Assembly (NCBI GenBank): GCA_964390545.1
Contig: CAYMJV010000002.1
Coordinates: forward strand, 15,555 to 79,554
Source of the DNA: an uncultured Syntrophaceae bacterium
Lineage (GTDB): Bacteria > Desulfobacterota > BSN033 > UBA1163
Length of the DNA: 64,000 nucleotides
Direction: 5' to 3'
Part shown: piece by piece, positions 13,308-25,465 of the stretch
Numbering within the stretch: position 1 is the stretch's first letter
How the letters are laid out: every line of letters starts with the position of its first letter
Notes under the pieces: model-generated
Seen by the model: only the letters and a program-made list of their open reading frames with translations
The model's database searches: none
What the model was told of the DNA's origin: nothing
Program-made: the position numbers and the translations under genes

Positions 13308-16163
13308 TTATGGAGTGACTTCCCTCCAGTAGAGAATTTCTTTAGTGGTGGAAGGTGAATATCCTTTTCTCGTCAAGATTTCGCCGCTCGTTGTTCCGAT
13401 CGTCACGGATGCCTTGCCTTCTAAATTGACTGAGATGACAGGAGCTGAAGGGATTCCCTCTCCGATCGTCTCGGATCGGGCGGAAGGCCTCCCCACTGAG
13501 TAATCATCCAGGACGAGAGCCCCTCCTCCTGAGAGATACTCAACAACATAAAGAGAAGCCTCACCCGTTCGATTACATTCATCCGTCGTAGCATAGGTAT
13601 AAGTTGTAAAATAGAGTAAATTGCTGAACACGGCCGGCTTCGATAACACTTTTTCAGATCTCGCCAACTGAATGTACCACCCTTTCAATGGCCATTGGGG
13701 AGTAGTGAACGTCTGATCGGTGAAATCGGTAACATTCCTCAGATTGCCCTCGTCTCTTGGGTAGGAACCTATCCCATCGTCCTTTACAGCATAAAATTTG
13801 TCCCTGCTATTAGTATCCGTTGGATTTTCTCTGTCCCCTGTCCCAAAAAAAACCCAGGGAGTTCGATGACTGTCCAAGGAGACTGCGGGTTGATAATAGA
13901 GCGGTCCCTTGTCAGCAGGTGCCCCTCTCGGTCTAAACAAGACTGTCCCTGTCCAGTTTCCCACGTCAGTGGATGAGATGTCGAAAACCCACATCTGCCC
14001 TGATAAATCTCCAATATAGACTTTGTCGATATACCCATTGAAATCCGTGTCCACAGCAGTGGGAGGCGCTGTCATCGAGTAGTCCATACGGGGCAATCCA
14101 GAGAACTCAGCCAAGATATCCCCTGTTTTTATATCAATTACAAAGAAGCCCTTCCCGGTGACATTTGTATTATCAAACCCGCCTCCAATAAAGGCGACCC
14201 ATCTTTCGCGCAGCTCGTCCCCTACTCTGATTCTAATTCTTCCTATCGCAGGTTCTGACCAACTCTGTCCAAGTTTCGCAAGGGTCGCTGCATCTGTTGC
14301 TTTCGGGAACTCCCAGAGATATTTCGGGTTCAACGTATCGGTGACATCCAGAGCGAAATAATGTTTTCCACCCTTTCTCAAGCCCGAGATTAAAACCGTC
14401 TTCCACTCATCCCTGGCCTTTGTGATACCAGATGGGTTGCTGTCACTGTAAAACCACACATCCGTCACCTTAGGCGATGAATCCACGTAATAGGTGTGGA
14501 GTGTAGCACTATTTTTCAAACTCCCAAGCAGGCTATGGGGGATGAACGCCCATTCTTCCGCTCCGGTTTCGGCATTGAAGGCATGGAGCATCCCATCATT
14601 GGCTCCAACAATGATCACCTTTGTTCGATTCTTGTTTCTTTGATAAAACCCTTCACTCCCATCCGGGCATTGATTGAAACACCGGTCGATAAAAAAACGA
14701 GAGGGTTCTCCAATGATGACGGCATTGGAATGGAAGATATCCCCTAATTTCCATAACCTATCATGTGTATCATATCCTGCGCTTGGGGCGAAAGGTGCAT
14801 CTATGTCGTAAGTATCTTGTCCTCTAATGTGCAAAATGAGTTTGTCACGTTCAGCATCAGTGGCTACATTCAAATCTTCTTTGGTTAGGTTGGCAGAGGT
14901 GAAGGATTGCAGTGCCCCCCTTACATAGGTATAAATTTTTCTCCCAGAACTGGCTTTGTTATTCAATTGCTCGCCTGCATCCCATTTGGGATTAATGGGA
15001 TTATTATCATTATCGACTTCAAGGGTTCCATCTTCCCGTAATTGGAAGGCCTTTAAGTTCCCTCGCCAGAAGGGGGTTTGTTGGGGCATAAAGGATGAAA
15101 TGTAGACCACATCCCCCTCTACCATTCGGACTGTAGGGACAGAAGGAGCCGTATAGGAATAGGACCTCTCCCTAATGTATCTGATAATTGTCTTCAGTGC
15201 ATTCCTGAGTTGGGAGGCATCCTCTGCTAAAAATGCATAGCCGGAAAGATCATAGTTGGCAGGATCCGCATTGGTATCTGTGATGCTACACAAATCTTCT
15301 CCTGCCGAAGGGAGATACTGGGTGATATTATAGGCATCAGCATTTCCAGAATTCGGTTCTAGAGGATTGTCCGTCCCGCCATATTTCGCAACCCAATTTA
15401 AGGTCTTTTTCAAATGGACCGGCATGTTTGCACCGAACCCAATCGCAAAGACCTGGAGCGGGACGACATTAGGAGCAGACGAAGGGGTGTAAAGCTCTTT
15501 GGCCCGCAGGACGGTCATAAACCTCCTCTTAAACATGTCCGAGGCATTCTCGGAGCAATCCCCGCTGCAGGCGACCGTGTCACTACCATCCGTAATAAAA
15601 ACCACAAACTTCTGGCGGCATGCGATGGCTTGATCATTCGGATTCACATGGTCCCGAAAATAAATTCCCCCCTCTACCAGGGATGCACCCAGAGGAGTAC
15701 ATCCTGTCGCTGTCTCTGCTGCATCAGACACTTTGTCCCAAATTGTTTTATACGCACTCCCTACCTCCGTCTCATTTTGAAACACTTTAATCTTACCCGT
15801 CATGGGATTACTATCATCCTCATCGGCCTCCCCTACCCCTCTGAATCTCATATATCCTATTTTGACATTCAAACTGCTCTGATCATTCGAATCAATGTAG
15901 TTCCCATCGTGATTCGAATCTTTACCGCTGTCATCATCATCAAGAAGGTCGTAGATCACATCCCTCGCAATATCAATTCTTCGATCTGGAGAGGAAGCGG
16001 CATTCCCTGCAACATCCCAATTCATGCTTCCGGACATATCCAAAAGGATGAGGGCTTCCGGCTTTACCCCCAACGTAAAGAGGTCTGTATCATCCGCCAT
16101 AGAGGGGCAGACGCAAATGAAAAAGGTACCCGTCACGAGTAGGAATAAAGCCCATTTTCTCAT
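13308..16163 (-). CDS. pilY1: PilY1-like tip adhesin (vWA + beta-propeller), module A
   Basis: 951 aa with a signal peptide. vWA MIDAS motif (LILLDMSGSM). PilY1 C-terminal motifs (YFALDVTDTLNPKYLWEF; Ca-site-like DTDFNGYIDKVYIGDLSGQMWVFD). Confidence 0.85.
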   Translation of the reverse strand: MRKWALFLLVTGTFFICVCPSMADDTDLFTLGVKPEALILLDMSGSMNWDVAGNAASSPDRRIDIARDVIYDLLDDDDSGKDSNHDGNYIDSNDQSSLNVKIGYMRFRGVGEADEDDSNPMTGKIKVFQNETEVGSAYKTIWDKVSDAAETATGCTPLGASLVEGGIYFRDHVNPNDQAIACRQKFVVFITDGSDTVACSGDCSENASDMFKRRFMTVLRAKELYTPSSAPNVVPLQVFAIGFGANMPVHLKKTLNWVAKYGGTDNPLEPNSGNADAYNITQYLPSAGEDLCSITDTNADPANYDLSGYAFLAEDASQLRNALKTIIRYIRERSYSYTAPSVPTVRMVEGDVVYISSFMPQQTPFWRGNLKAFQLREDGTLEVDNDNNPINPKWDAGEQLNNKASSGRKIYTYVRGALQSFTSANLTKEDLNVATDAERDKLILHIRGQDTYDIDAPFAPSAGYDTHDRLWKLGDIFHSNAVIIGEPSRFFIDRCFNQCPDGSEGFYQRNKNRTKVIIVGANDGMLHAFNAETGAEEWAFIPHSLLGSLKNSATLHTYYVDSSPKVTDVWFYSDSNPSGITKARDEWKTVLISGLRKGGKHYFALDVTDTLNPKYLWEFPKATDAATLAKLGQSWSEPAIGRIRIRVGDELRERWVAFIGGGFDNTNVTGKGFFVIDIKTGDILAEFSGLPRMDYSMTAPPTAVDTDFNGYIDKVYIGDLSGQMWVFDISSTDVGNWTGTVLFRPRGAPADKGPLYYQPAVSLDSHRTPWVFFGTGDRENPTDTNSRDKFYAVKDDGIGSYPRDEGNLRNVTDFTDQTFTTPQWPLKGWYIQLARSEKVLSKPAVFSNLLYFTTYTYATTDECNRTGEASLYVVEYLSGGGALVLDDYSVGRPSARSETIGEGIPSAPVISVNLEGKASVTIGTTSGEILTRKGYSPSTTKEILYWREVTP

Positions 16164-16329
16164 TATTTTCTTACCTCTCTTCAGGGGTTGAAAATCCTAA
16201 AATAAAGGAGAGTTCCTTGAAGATCAAATCCGGCCCTATGCGGTTGTCGTCTCCCCTCCATGTCGCCGGTTGTCATTCGTATTCCGGATGATGGCTTTGG
16301 CTTTGTAGAGCGAAGGGCAGCGTGTGAGA

Positions 16330-16677
16330 TCAAGGGTTTCTTTTAGGGGTCCTTATGGTCCTTATAACAGTGATCTTTTCCGGATAGATCCCCTCTGTCT
16401 TCCGAACCCCTTCCACTCTCACGGAGAGTCCCCGTTTCAGTTGATTCATTTTCAATTGGTTATTATTCTCGTCAACAATCTTCGTATTCGAAGTGATATA
16501 AACCCTTTGTTCATTGACAACGATAAATCTGCGGCTCTCAGGAATGCTGTCAATCGATCCAAAGAAAGAAAAGACTCCTTCTTTCTTCCCCTGAGAGAAC
16601 CCCGAGCTCGCGAGGAACAGTGTCACCACCAAAAAAACAAACTGAAGCAGGAAAACCTTTTTGACTTGCATCATCAA
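16330..16677 (-). CDS. Small exported protein, paralog of 20450..20809 (PilY1-associated)
   Basis: 115 aa, signal peptide, GAGGAG RBS. Shares a pattern with the 119-aa ORF at 20450 (IVVNEQ/IVNER ... NT ... VEG/LEG ... EKI). Confidence 0.6.
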   Translation of the reverse strand: MMMQVKKVFLLQFVFLVVTLFLASSGFSQGKKEGVFSFFGSIDSIPESRRFIVVNEQRVYITSNTKIVDENNNQLKMNQLKRGLSVRVEGVRKTEGIYPEKITVIRTIRTPKRNP

Positions 16678-25054: not shown

Positions 25055-25090
25055 CCTCTTAGGCTCCAGAATTCCTTATAAAAACCGCTG

Positions 25091-25465
25091 TTAGTGAGAG
25101 AGGACCGATACAAGTTTAATCGAATGAGCAGTGCGGTCATTCCAATTCACACTGATGGTGATCGTTTTTAAACTGCCGTTGGTCGTCACATTCCAATTTC
25201 TGGTATAGTTGATGCCCGTTGAACCACCTTGCTGGTCCGTATTATTCCCCTCAATCAAATTCTCCCATTTTACTGCTCTTAACTCTTCTAATTTATCCTG
25301 AGCGAAGGTAGCTGCTTCGGTCATATGGCTCCCAAAAGCATTATTCTTCGTCGTGGTGACCATGAGGCCTGCAAGGGCCAATAAGGAAAAAGAGAGGATA
25401 ACCATGGCTACTAACACTTCAATCAACGTAAATCCTTTGGATCTTAATAATGGGTTCAATAGCAA
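25091..25465 (-). CDS. pilV: PilV-like minor pilin, module B
   Basis: RSKG/FTLIEVLVAMVILSFSLLALAGLM. Non-ATG (TTG) start at 25465 or 25459, preceded by AAGGGAG. Confidence 0.8.
   Translation of the reverse strand: MLLNPLLRSKGFTLIEVLVAMVILSFSLLALAGLMVTTTKNNAFGSHMTEAATFAQDKLEELRAVKWENLIEGNNTDQQGGSTGINYTRNWNVTTNGSLKTITISVNWNDRTAHSIKLVSVLSH

Follow-up and report, generated by a model that had tools for sequence, protein, structure and literature searches.

In Myxococcus xanthus, several diverged sets that combine minor pilins with PilY1 (clusters 1–3) are served by one Pil-type type IV pilus machine (PMC7541494, PMC8833165, PMC9109919, PMC13190605). Cluster_1 or cluster_3 alone supports the formation of pili on this machine (PMC7541494), the several sets have been proposed to yield tips with different properties (PMC8833165), and HsfBA regulates pilY1.1 and pilY1.3 differentially (PMC9109919). 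Multiple versions of FimU, PilV, PilW, PilX, PilE as well as PilY1 have also been noted in Geobacter genomes (PMC3543383). Here, we analyze a tandem array of two minor pilin/PilY1 modules in an uncultured Syntrophaceae bacterium (assembly GCA_964390545.1), whose metagenome-assembled genome (MAG) consists of 425 contigs and is 85% complete. The array lies in a stretch of 64,000 nucleotides (contig CAYMJV010000002.1, positions 15,555–79,554 of the forward strand), which was analyzed as a whole and is referred to as the window; all coordinates below count from its first letter. The best interpretation, held with moderate confidence, is that the modules encode two anciently diverged PilVWX–PilY1 tip and priming complexes that are alternatives on a single Pil-type type IVa machine. 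As alternative tips on one machine are already known from M. xanthus, the array is a further example that extends rather than changes the known biology.

Comparison with Described Systems

As in M. xanthus, the PilY1 proteins combine a conserved C-terminal propeller with divergent N-terminal heads, and a small accessory protein is encoded beside pilY1 (TfcP in cluster_1). However, the M. xanthus sets are dispersed, whereas the modules described here are directly tandem within the main pil locus. Each M. xanthus cluster contains four minor pilins, but here one FimU/FimT-like gene is present for two sets, and the accessory protein is a cytochrome c in M. xanthus but a PilY2-like protein with a predicted oligonucleotide/oligosaccharide-binding (OB) fold here, where an immunoglobulin (Ig)-repeat lipoprotein furthermore ends module B. 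The M. xanthus sets are under differential control by the two-component phosphorelay HsfBA, whereas separate control of the present modules is suggested by their differing promoter motifs.

The operon fimU-pilV-pilW-pilX-pilY1-pilY2-pilE of Pseudomonas aeruginosa (with fimT upstream) resembles module B, which mirrors its pilV-pilW-pilX-pilY1-pilY2 order. Further likenesses are the predicted fold of the small protein, which matches PilY2 (3tdq), a PilX without Glu5, a PilY1 with a propeller, a putative calcium loop, and a probable vWA-type N-terminus, and a PilE/ComP-like non-core pilin, which is encoded beside the major pilins here. In contrast, P. aeruginosa has a single set, the small gene of module A precedes pilY1, and the small proteins lack similarity to PilY2 at the sequence level. 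The P. aeruginosa operon is under AlgR/FimS control, as opposed to a predicted sigma-54 promoter next to pilSR here. In Neisseria, PilC1 and PilC2 are likewise two PilY1-family adhesins on one pilus machine, but only the adhesin is duplicated there, unlinked to the minor pilin operon (one PilH-I-J-K set), whereas the array described here also duplicates the PilV-PilW-PilX trio. Geobacter shares with the present organism the affiliation to the former Deltaproteobacteria and the presence of several versions of minor pilus components and PilY1, a likeness drawn from the listing of the Geobacter sets (PMC3543383). No paper describing a tandem array with a single FimT in Syntrophia was found in the literature searched, which is no proof of absence.

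Organization of the Tandem Array

The array comprises 12 genes in two halves, module B followed by module A, which follow each other head-to-tail on the minus strand, with pilMNOPQ on one side and pilD-pilS-pilR on the other. Module B has the order pilV-pilW-pilX-pilY1-small PilY2-like gene-Ig lipoprotein gene, and module A the order fimT-pilV-pilW-pilX-small PilY2-like gene-pilY1. Open reading frames (ORFs) were called on the window and assigned to families by Pfam and NCBIfam, as follows for module B:

25091..25459, minus strand: pilV-B, GspI-like, 122 aa from TTG 25459 (ORF open from 25465)
24407..25054, minus strand: pilW-B, GspJ-like, 215 aa; PilW PF16074 (E 9e-11) and N_methyl
23863..24351, minus strand: pilX-B, GspK-like cap pilin, 162 aa; PilX_N PF14341 (E 2.5e-15)
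20823..23858, minus strand: pilY1-B, 1011 aa; signal peptide; PF05567 (E 1.3e-20)
20450..20809, minus strand: small exported protein B, 119 aa, with a predicted OB fold; putative structural analogue of PilY2
19498..20487, minus strand: Ig-repeat lipoprotein, last gene of module B; He_PIG/Big_9/cadherin-like Pfam matches and lipobox

and for module A:

18511..18972, minus strand: fimT/fimU-like (GspH-like) pilin, 153 aa; N_methyl and GspH PF12019, with gspH/XpsH matches
18122..18514, minus strand: pilV-A, 130 aa; TIGR02523 PilV and N_methyl
17244..18125, minus strand: pilW-A, 293 aa; N_methyl, GspJ-like
16737..17213, minus strand: pilX-A, 158 aa; PilX_N PF14341 (E 1.8e-10)
16330..16677, minus strand: small exported protein A, 115 aa; DUF5666 PF18914 (E 1.8e-7)
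13308..16163, minus strand: pilY1-A, 951 aa; signal peptide; PF05567 (E 7e-22)

PilV-B has N_methyl and TIGR02523/gspI matches and the prepilin motif GFTLIE, and its gene is preceded by the ribosome-binding site GGAAGGGAG. The ORF of the Ig lipoprotein is open from 20559, with ATG 20487 as the likely start, and fimT and pilV-A overlap by 4 nt. Class III leaders of the G|[FVL]TLIE type are present on the pilins of both modules, and Glu5 is absent from both PilX proteins (leaders ...KGVALVIAL in A and ...SGVALVMAL in B), as expected for PilX.

The gene names and minus-strand coordinates given in an initial annotation of this DNA thus correspond to uninterrupted ORFs whose identities are supported by Pfam and NCBIfam, and the PilW lengths that it contrasted (215 versus 293 aa) are correct. 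Inactivating lesions in one module, which according to that annotation would speak against two functional tip complexes, were looked for, and neither stops nor frameshifts were found in any ORF of module A or B. Although both modules are intact, their description as two complete modules goes too far, as module B lacks a GspH/FimU-like pilin, the sole copy of which in the window heads module A.

Divergence, Age, and Selection

The paired proteins of modules A and B are only distantly similar, with identities of 33% for PilV, 43% for PilW (over the N-terminal 88 aa), 48% for PilX (N-terminal part), 32% for PilY1 (over 855 aa), and 23% for the small proteins (blastp E 1e-5). For comparison, 40 relatives were searched and 20 loci were then annotated at the ORF level. 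The B-then-A array was found in a congener (G001), in four more genera of the same family, f1 (G011, G013, G007, and G006), as well as in another family of the class, f2 (G033, G036, and G025), that is, in eight relatives from two families. Two PilY1 genes within approximately 12 kb on one contig were detected in at least 12 of the 40 relatives, and a scan of named genomes revealed a similar tandem, V-W-X-Y1-FimT-V-W-X-Y1, in a Desulfuromonadales MAG. More distant MAGs labeled as “delta proteobacterium” (L039, L041) contain a single module, PilS-PilR-V-W-X-Y1-Ig-FimT, and one further genome (G022) has a B-type module with no A module adjoining. The surroundings are conserved too: pilD-pilS-pilR-module B synteny is kept in G011, G013, and G007, pilR-module B in G006, and pilS-pilR-module in L039 and L041, and the Ig gene follows pilY1-B or the small gene in all eight relatives with the array as well as in L039 and L041.

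A maximum-likelihood tree was computed from 30 PilY1 proteins, and in it an A clade restricted to family f1 (support 96/99) is set apart from B-type proteins of three families. Judged from the B-then-A array in eight relatives of two families and the similar tandem in the Desulfuromonadales MAG, the duplication is ancient: it goes back to the origin of the family or beyond, and the tandem layout further still. Synteny and the PilY1 tree therefore bear out the earlier impression that this is not a recent duplication. Both modules are under purifying selection, as the ratio of nonsynonymous to synonymous substitution rates (dN/dS) between the host and the congener G001 is 0.09–0.20 in the eight genes, out of nine, for which it was computable; PilY1-B, which is 85% identical to its counterpart in the congener, has a dN/dS of 0.09.

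Some loci deviate from the common layout. G018 (L031, contig C90) carries two A-type modules, FimT-V-W-X-Y1 followed by V-W-X-Y1, and G028 (L019, contig C166) has two B-type pilY1 genes with only a small DUF5666-like gene between them. At locus L018 (G007, contig C32, CAVOIK010000032.1), pilX-B, pilY1-B, fimT, and pilY1-A are each broken into several ORFs, with stops of all three kinds, which could be due to indel errors in long reads or to real decay of both modules. Finally, a bacterial pilV-pilW-pilX-pilY1-small module is located on contig JAWABC010000026.1 (L036), which is assigned to a “Candidatus Nanoarchaeia archaeon” MAG. The PilY1 of this module is 66% identical to that of module B, and the contig is most likely a mis-binned bacterial one.

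A Single FimT/GspH-Like Pilin

Module A carries genes of all four core minor pilins (GspH-, GspI-, GspJ-, and GspK-like), whereas module B encodes PilV, PilW, and PilX only; the 333-nt gap between pilV-B and pilR contains no ORF. A GspH search of the whole genome retrieved only the module A gene and a copy belonging to the type II secretion system (T2SS) on contig C57. In every relative examined, including the Desulfuromonadales MAG, one FimT-like gene was present per tandem pair. It heads the first module in G018, and in single-module relatives it is the last gene, after the Ig protein.

In the published order PilA-FimU-PilW-PilV-PilX-PilY1, FimU is the basal component, with the shaft on one side and PilW/V/X/PilY1 on the other, and FimU of P. 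aeruginosa is incorporated independently (PMC13190605). An M. xanthus fimU3 mutant was not completely blocked (PMC7541494). Because only one gene exists per pair and FimU occupies this basal position and is incorporated independently, the FimT-like pilin may act as an adaptor shared by both modules. As the single GspH/FimT-like gene is common to both, the modules would not be two self-sufficient sets.

Promoters and the Spacer Between the Modules

Putative sigma-54 promoters were evaluated by three features: a GG-N10-GC core near TGGCAC-N5-TTGCW, a conserved position upstream of an operon, and the presence of rpoN and an activator gene. Across the window, 19 matches resembling a −24/−12 element were found versus 20.5 expected, and because the motif thus is not enriched, the case for sigma-54 promoters relies on position and conservation. 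The following elements were identified upstream of module B:

25499..25514, minus strand: sigma-54 −24/−12-like site, TGGTATAGGTTTTGCA, ~35–40 nt upstream of pilV-B; 9/11 consensus
25566..25582, minus strand: conserved upstream box, TTACAACCTTTCAAAAT (TTCTAACCTATCAAAAC in relatives), ~55–70 nt upstream of the −24 element
25798–27177, minus strand: pilR, sigma-54 activator (Pfam), directly upstream of module B; candidate regulator
27253–28926, minus strand: pilS, HAMP histidine kinase (Pfam), upstream of module B; candidate regulator

A predicted sigma-54 promoter of module B is well supported. At −44 to −55, the site recurs in the conserved form TTGGTAYnnnTTTTGCW in G013, G007, and G006, and it is present in G011, giving five genera in all; rpoN is located on contig C10 of the genome, and PilR is encoded directly upstream. 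The box TTACAACCTTTCAAAAT consists of invariant columns in the five-genus alignment and is a candidate activator or IHF site; searches upstream of module A and of the major pilin gene pilin1 did not reveal it. A sigma-54-like site, TGGCATGGATTATGCT, is also located ~150 nt upstream of pilin1 (57759–57774), which would fit PilR/sigma-54 control of the major pilin.

Upstream of module A, two different promoter-like elements and a repeat were detected:

19139..19154, minus strand: sigma-54 −24/−12-like site, TGGCATAACATTTGCT, 182 nt upstream of the fimT ATG; 10/11 consensus
18989..19017, minus strand: sigma-70-like promoter, TTGACA-17-CAGAAT, immediately upstream of fimT-A
19370..19500, no strand assigned: multi-hairpin element of ~130 nt in the spacer between B and A; dispersed genomic repeat

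The sigma-54-like site of module A is conserved in the congener and has a perfect consensus in G019, and no such site was found in the shorter B-A spacers of G011, G013, G007, and G006. A sequence TTGACA-17-TAnAAT beside fimT is kept in five genomes from four genera (the host, G000, and G001, G011, G013, and G006). Approximately 40 nt upstream of this sigma-70-like promoter lies a box, TGTCAAnnnnGTGTAAA, which occurs as TGTCAA-GTGTAAA in the host, G001, G013, G007, and G006. It is therefore probable that module A has a promoter of its own, which would belong mainly to the sigma-70 type. The initial annotation had assigned a sigma-54 promoter of its own to each module; both spacers indeed hold a site, but conservation across five genera applies to module B, whereas that of module A is shared with only the congener and one other genus. 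A possible operator is the perfect 7-bp inverted repeat TTCTGAT-TTT-ATCAGAA (18989–19012), which lies across the sigma-70-like promoter of module A and has the same sequence in the congener.

The multi-hairpin element has at least 12 near-full-length copies (83–95% identity) and many partial copies on other contigs, and the congener's orthologous spacer lacks it. It behaves like an inserted dispersed repeat of the repetitive extragenic palindrome (REP) or miniature inverted-repeat transposable element (MITE) kind. A role as attenuator or switch between the modules, which was also considered, is ruled out by these copies and by the absence from the congener's spacer.

PilY1 Proteins and Their Small Partners

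The two pilY1 genes of the array are the only ones in the genome. Both proteins match the C-terminal domain of P. aeruginosa PilY1 (3hx6; E 3e-28 for A and 1.7e-22 for B) and contain EF-hand-like loops of the form D-x-[DN]-x-[DN]-G-x-x-D (DTDFNGYID, residues 705–713, in A; DTNGDGKVD, 744–752, in B), so that each module is predicted to encode a C-terminal beta-propeller with a putative calcium-binding loop.

The N-terminal heads, for which the initial annotation had proposed von Willebrand factor A (vWA) regions, are less clear. Residues typical of a metal ion-dependent adhesion site (MIDAS) are present in PilY1-B (DNSGS, 46–50) and in PilY1-A (DMSGS, 42–46; TP, 156–157; ITDG, 190–193), and DxSxS, T-P, and D-G do not vary among eight aligned N-termini of the A and B types. 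PilY1-B scores 23.0 bits on Pfam VWA, just below the cut-off of 23.8, and a vWA domain is likely in this protein. The isolated N-terminus of PilY1-A had no match to Pfam VWA and only insignificant matches in a profile search of PDB sequences, and its AlphaFold2 model, based on the eight-sequence alignment, reached a mean predicted local distance difference test score (pLDDT) of 42, which is too low for use. The invariant MIDAS-type residues are what speaks for a vWA domain in PilY1-A, which is probable by homology.

The small proteins were compared by structure and sequence. An AlphaFold model of the B protein, built with six homologues, had a pLDDT of 82.7 and shows a helix, either signal or anchor, and then a barrel of five strands. 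Its top Foldseek match in the PDB was P. aeruginosa PilY2 (3tdq_A; E 4.3e-4, TM-score 0.70 normalized by target), with CusF and other OB folds close behind. A profile of six small proteins did not match 3tdq among PDB sequences even at E 10; the small proteins thus look like PilY2 (P. aeruginosa PA4555) in their predicted fold, with no homology found at the sequence level. The A protein is homologous to the B protein but is encoded upstream of pilY1-A rather than downstream.

Comparison of the host with its congener (window 14960–16900 versus positions 4834–8645 of locus L015) revealed uneven divergence within module A. FimT, PilV, and PilW of this module are 76–79% identical and PilX 62%, whereas the small protein is only 30% identical, as compared to 76% for that of module B. 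Likewise, the N-terminal ~400 aa of PilY1-A are 21–26% and its propeller ~70% identical, whereas PilY1-B is 85% identical throughout. This suggests, for one species pair, that the head of PilY1-A and its small partner have co-diverged or been swapped as a fast-evolving adhesin-head cassette.

The Pilus Machine and Major Pilins

One PilMNOPQ set is encoded in the window, and PilB and PilT on contig C11. The remaining pilus genes and regulators of the window are:

112–5680: pilMNOPQ
5838–11493: second sigma-54 activator/kinase pair, CheW-like gene, mglA, mglB, and DUF4388 regulator
25798–29714: block of pilR, pilS, and pilD directly upstream of module B, with a glycosylation island beyond
57153–57608, minus strand: pilin1 (Pfam), 75% identical to pilin2
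56436–56900, minus strand: pilin2 (Pfam)
~55885–56322, minus strand: pilin3, PilE/ComP_DUS-like (Pfam)

Two diverged PilY1 genes thus accompany a single Pil-type machine in this 85% complete genome. Other filament systems are a mannose-sensitive hemagglutinin (MSH)-like system on contig C16, the T2SS on C57, which has its own GspH and other pseudopilins, and Tad on C1. At the MSH-like locus (C16:14000–34000, L052), genes were identified for an ATPase of the MshE type that includes an MshEN domain, for a secretin, for a fused PilM-PilN, and for AAA_22 and TPR proteins. Upstream lie three prepilin genes; the locus also has a pilin gene beside genes for a YfhO-like protein and a PMT_2 glycosyltransferase.

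In a pilin tree, pilin1 and pilin2 group with the congener's pilin (100/99), and the second pilins of G011 and G013, which have two pilin-type genes and a PilE-like one, form a separate clade (95/100). Pilin1 and pilin2 are, by this tree, a recent genus-level duplicate; pilin genes were duplicated independently in these lineages, long after the modules had split. G006, which has both modules, carries one pilin at the pilin locus examined.

Proposed Alternative Tips and Competing Explanations

The interpretation as alternative tip complexes, already put forward in the initial annotation, is supported in outline by the intactness, ancient divergence, purifying selection, and different promoters of the modules and by the single machine; its extension to pilin-specific modules is not (see below). 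It is based on observed gene content, homology, intactness, duplication age, purifying selection, and conservation of promoter motifs, and on the predicted fold of the small proteins. From these, we infer an order of assembly, sharing of FimT, differential expression, and function at the tip. Each PilV-PilW-PilX trio would act with its own PilY1 to start the assembly of a pilus in the machine and would come to lie at the tip of this pilus, the vWA-like N-terminal head of PilY1 being outermost, and the single GspH/FimT-like pilin would join either tip to the major pilin shaft. The modules would be separate transcription units, B behind pilS-pilR and a sigma-54 promoter, and A behind a sigma-70-like promoter and a genus-specific sigma-54-like site; because these promoter types differ, it is proposed that the cell can vary the tip that it mounts. 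Module B would provide a conserved tip, and the PilY1 head and small OB-fold partner of module A a fast-changing cassette. Since the latter two co-diverge in the one species pair compared, a more specific version is put forward tentatively, according to which the dual tip is “constant plus variable”: one FimT adaptor would serve a conserved, PilSR/sigma-54-controlled B tip and a separately promoted A tip whose head and OB-fold partner are swapped as one cassette among close relatives.

Several observations weigh against alternative tips. The B-A spacer is short (136–281 nt) in G011, G013, G007, and G006, so that read-through from the B promoter into module A would be possible there. The two modules are always found together and in one fixed order, as would be expected from obligatory cooperation just as much as from alternation. 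Sharing of FimT is deduced from gene counts, and a divergent GspH-like gene could sit in the 15% of the genome that is missing from the assembly. For a vWA fold in PilY1-A, there is neither a Pfam match nor a usable model nor a significant PDB profile match, and the second-position PilY1 of family f2 sits on a long branch of uncertain placement in the PilY1 tree. The fixed order and co-occurrence in eight relatives from two families, the single FimT serving both modules, and the short spacers without a sigma-54 site in four genera would all suit a single cooperating unit, always co-expressed and with both sets needed, in which one set primes assembly and the other forms the adhesive tip, or in which mixed complexes are formed. 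This explanation is rather doubtful in view of the conserved sigma-70-like promoter and upstream box before fimT-A, the single V-W-X-Y1-Ig-FimT modules in L039 and L041, the B-type module of G022 without an adjoining A module, and the fact that one M. xanthus cluster alone suffices (PMC7541494).

The remaining explanations are less probable still. A pairing of each module with one major pilin paralog to form two distinct filaments, as the initial annotation had surmised, might be suggested by the two 75% identical pilin genes in the same window and the two pilin-type genes plus PilE-like gene of G011 and G013. However, the one-to-one match is not supported because the pilin duplications arose independently and much later than the module split (tree support 100/99 and 95/100), and relatives with both modules carry a different second pilin or, in G006, only one at the locus examined; the pairing is accordingly improbable. 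That one module serves the MSH-like system on C16 or the T2SS on C57 is unlikely as well. The genome does hold an MSH-like set (MshE-type ATPase, PilM-PilN fusion, secretin, and TPR/AAA genes), a T2SS, and Tad, but C16 has its own three minor pilin-like genes and pilin, C57 its own GspH and pseudopilins, and both modules are located inside the pil locus, between pilMNOPQ and pilD-pilS-pilR, with conserved synteny; PilY1 propeller proteins moreover are partners of Pil-type type IVa pili. Least probable is decay of one of the modules into a non-functional duplicate. In favor of this, module B is without a GspH-like gene, and PilY1-A has no detectable Pfam VWA and an N-terminus that is very divergent between congeners, but stops and frameshifts are absent, none of the leader, MIDAS-type, or calcium-loop motifs is missing, dN/dS is low in both modules, and both are kept across two families. 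The idea of a pseudogene module is largely ruled out by the intact ORFs and the dN/dS of 0.09–0.20.

Implications

The type IV pili of Syntrophaceae and related bacteria are relevant to contact between cells in syntrophic consortia. The array offers testable handles in this respect, namely two old tip sets in fixed tandem, one behind a conserved predicted sigma-54 promoter and the other with a fast-changing adhesin head. The single FimT per pair and the PilY2-like partner may prove more useful than the duplication itself. One FimT per two PilVWX–PilY1 sets would lend comparative support to the view of the GspH-like pilin as a generic adaptor apart from the tip core, and the OB-fold protein beside each PilY1, which appears to co-diverge with the PilY1 head, hints at a role for the poorly understood PilY2. 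If the co-variation within the cassette is true, PilY2-type proteins may be binding partners or chaperones of the PilY1 head, so that PilY2 would gain a function, and if the dual tip with an exchangeable cassette is true, it would provide strain-specific attachment specificity for syntrophic partners.

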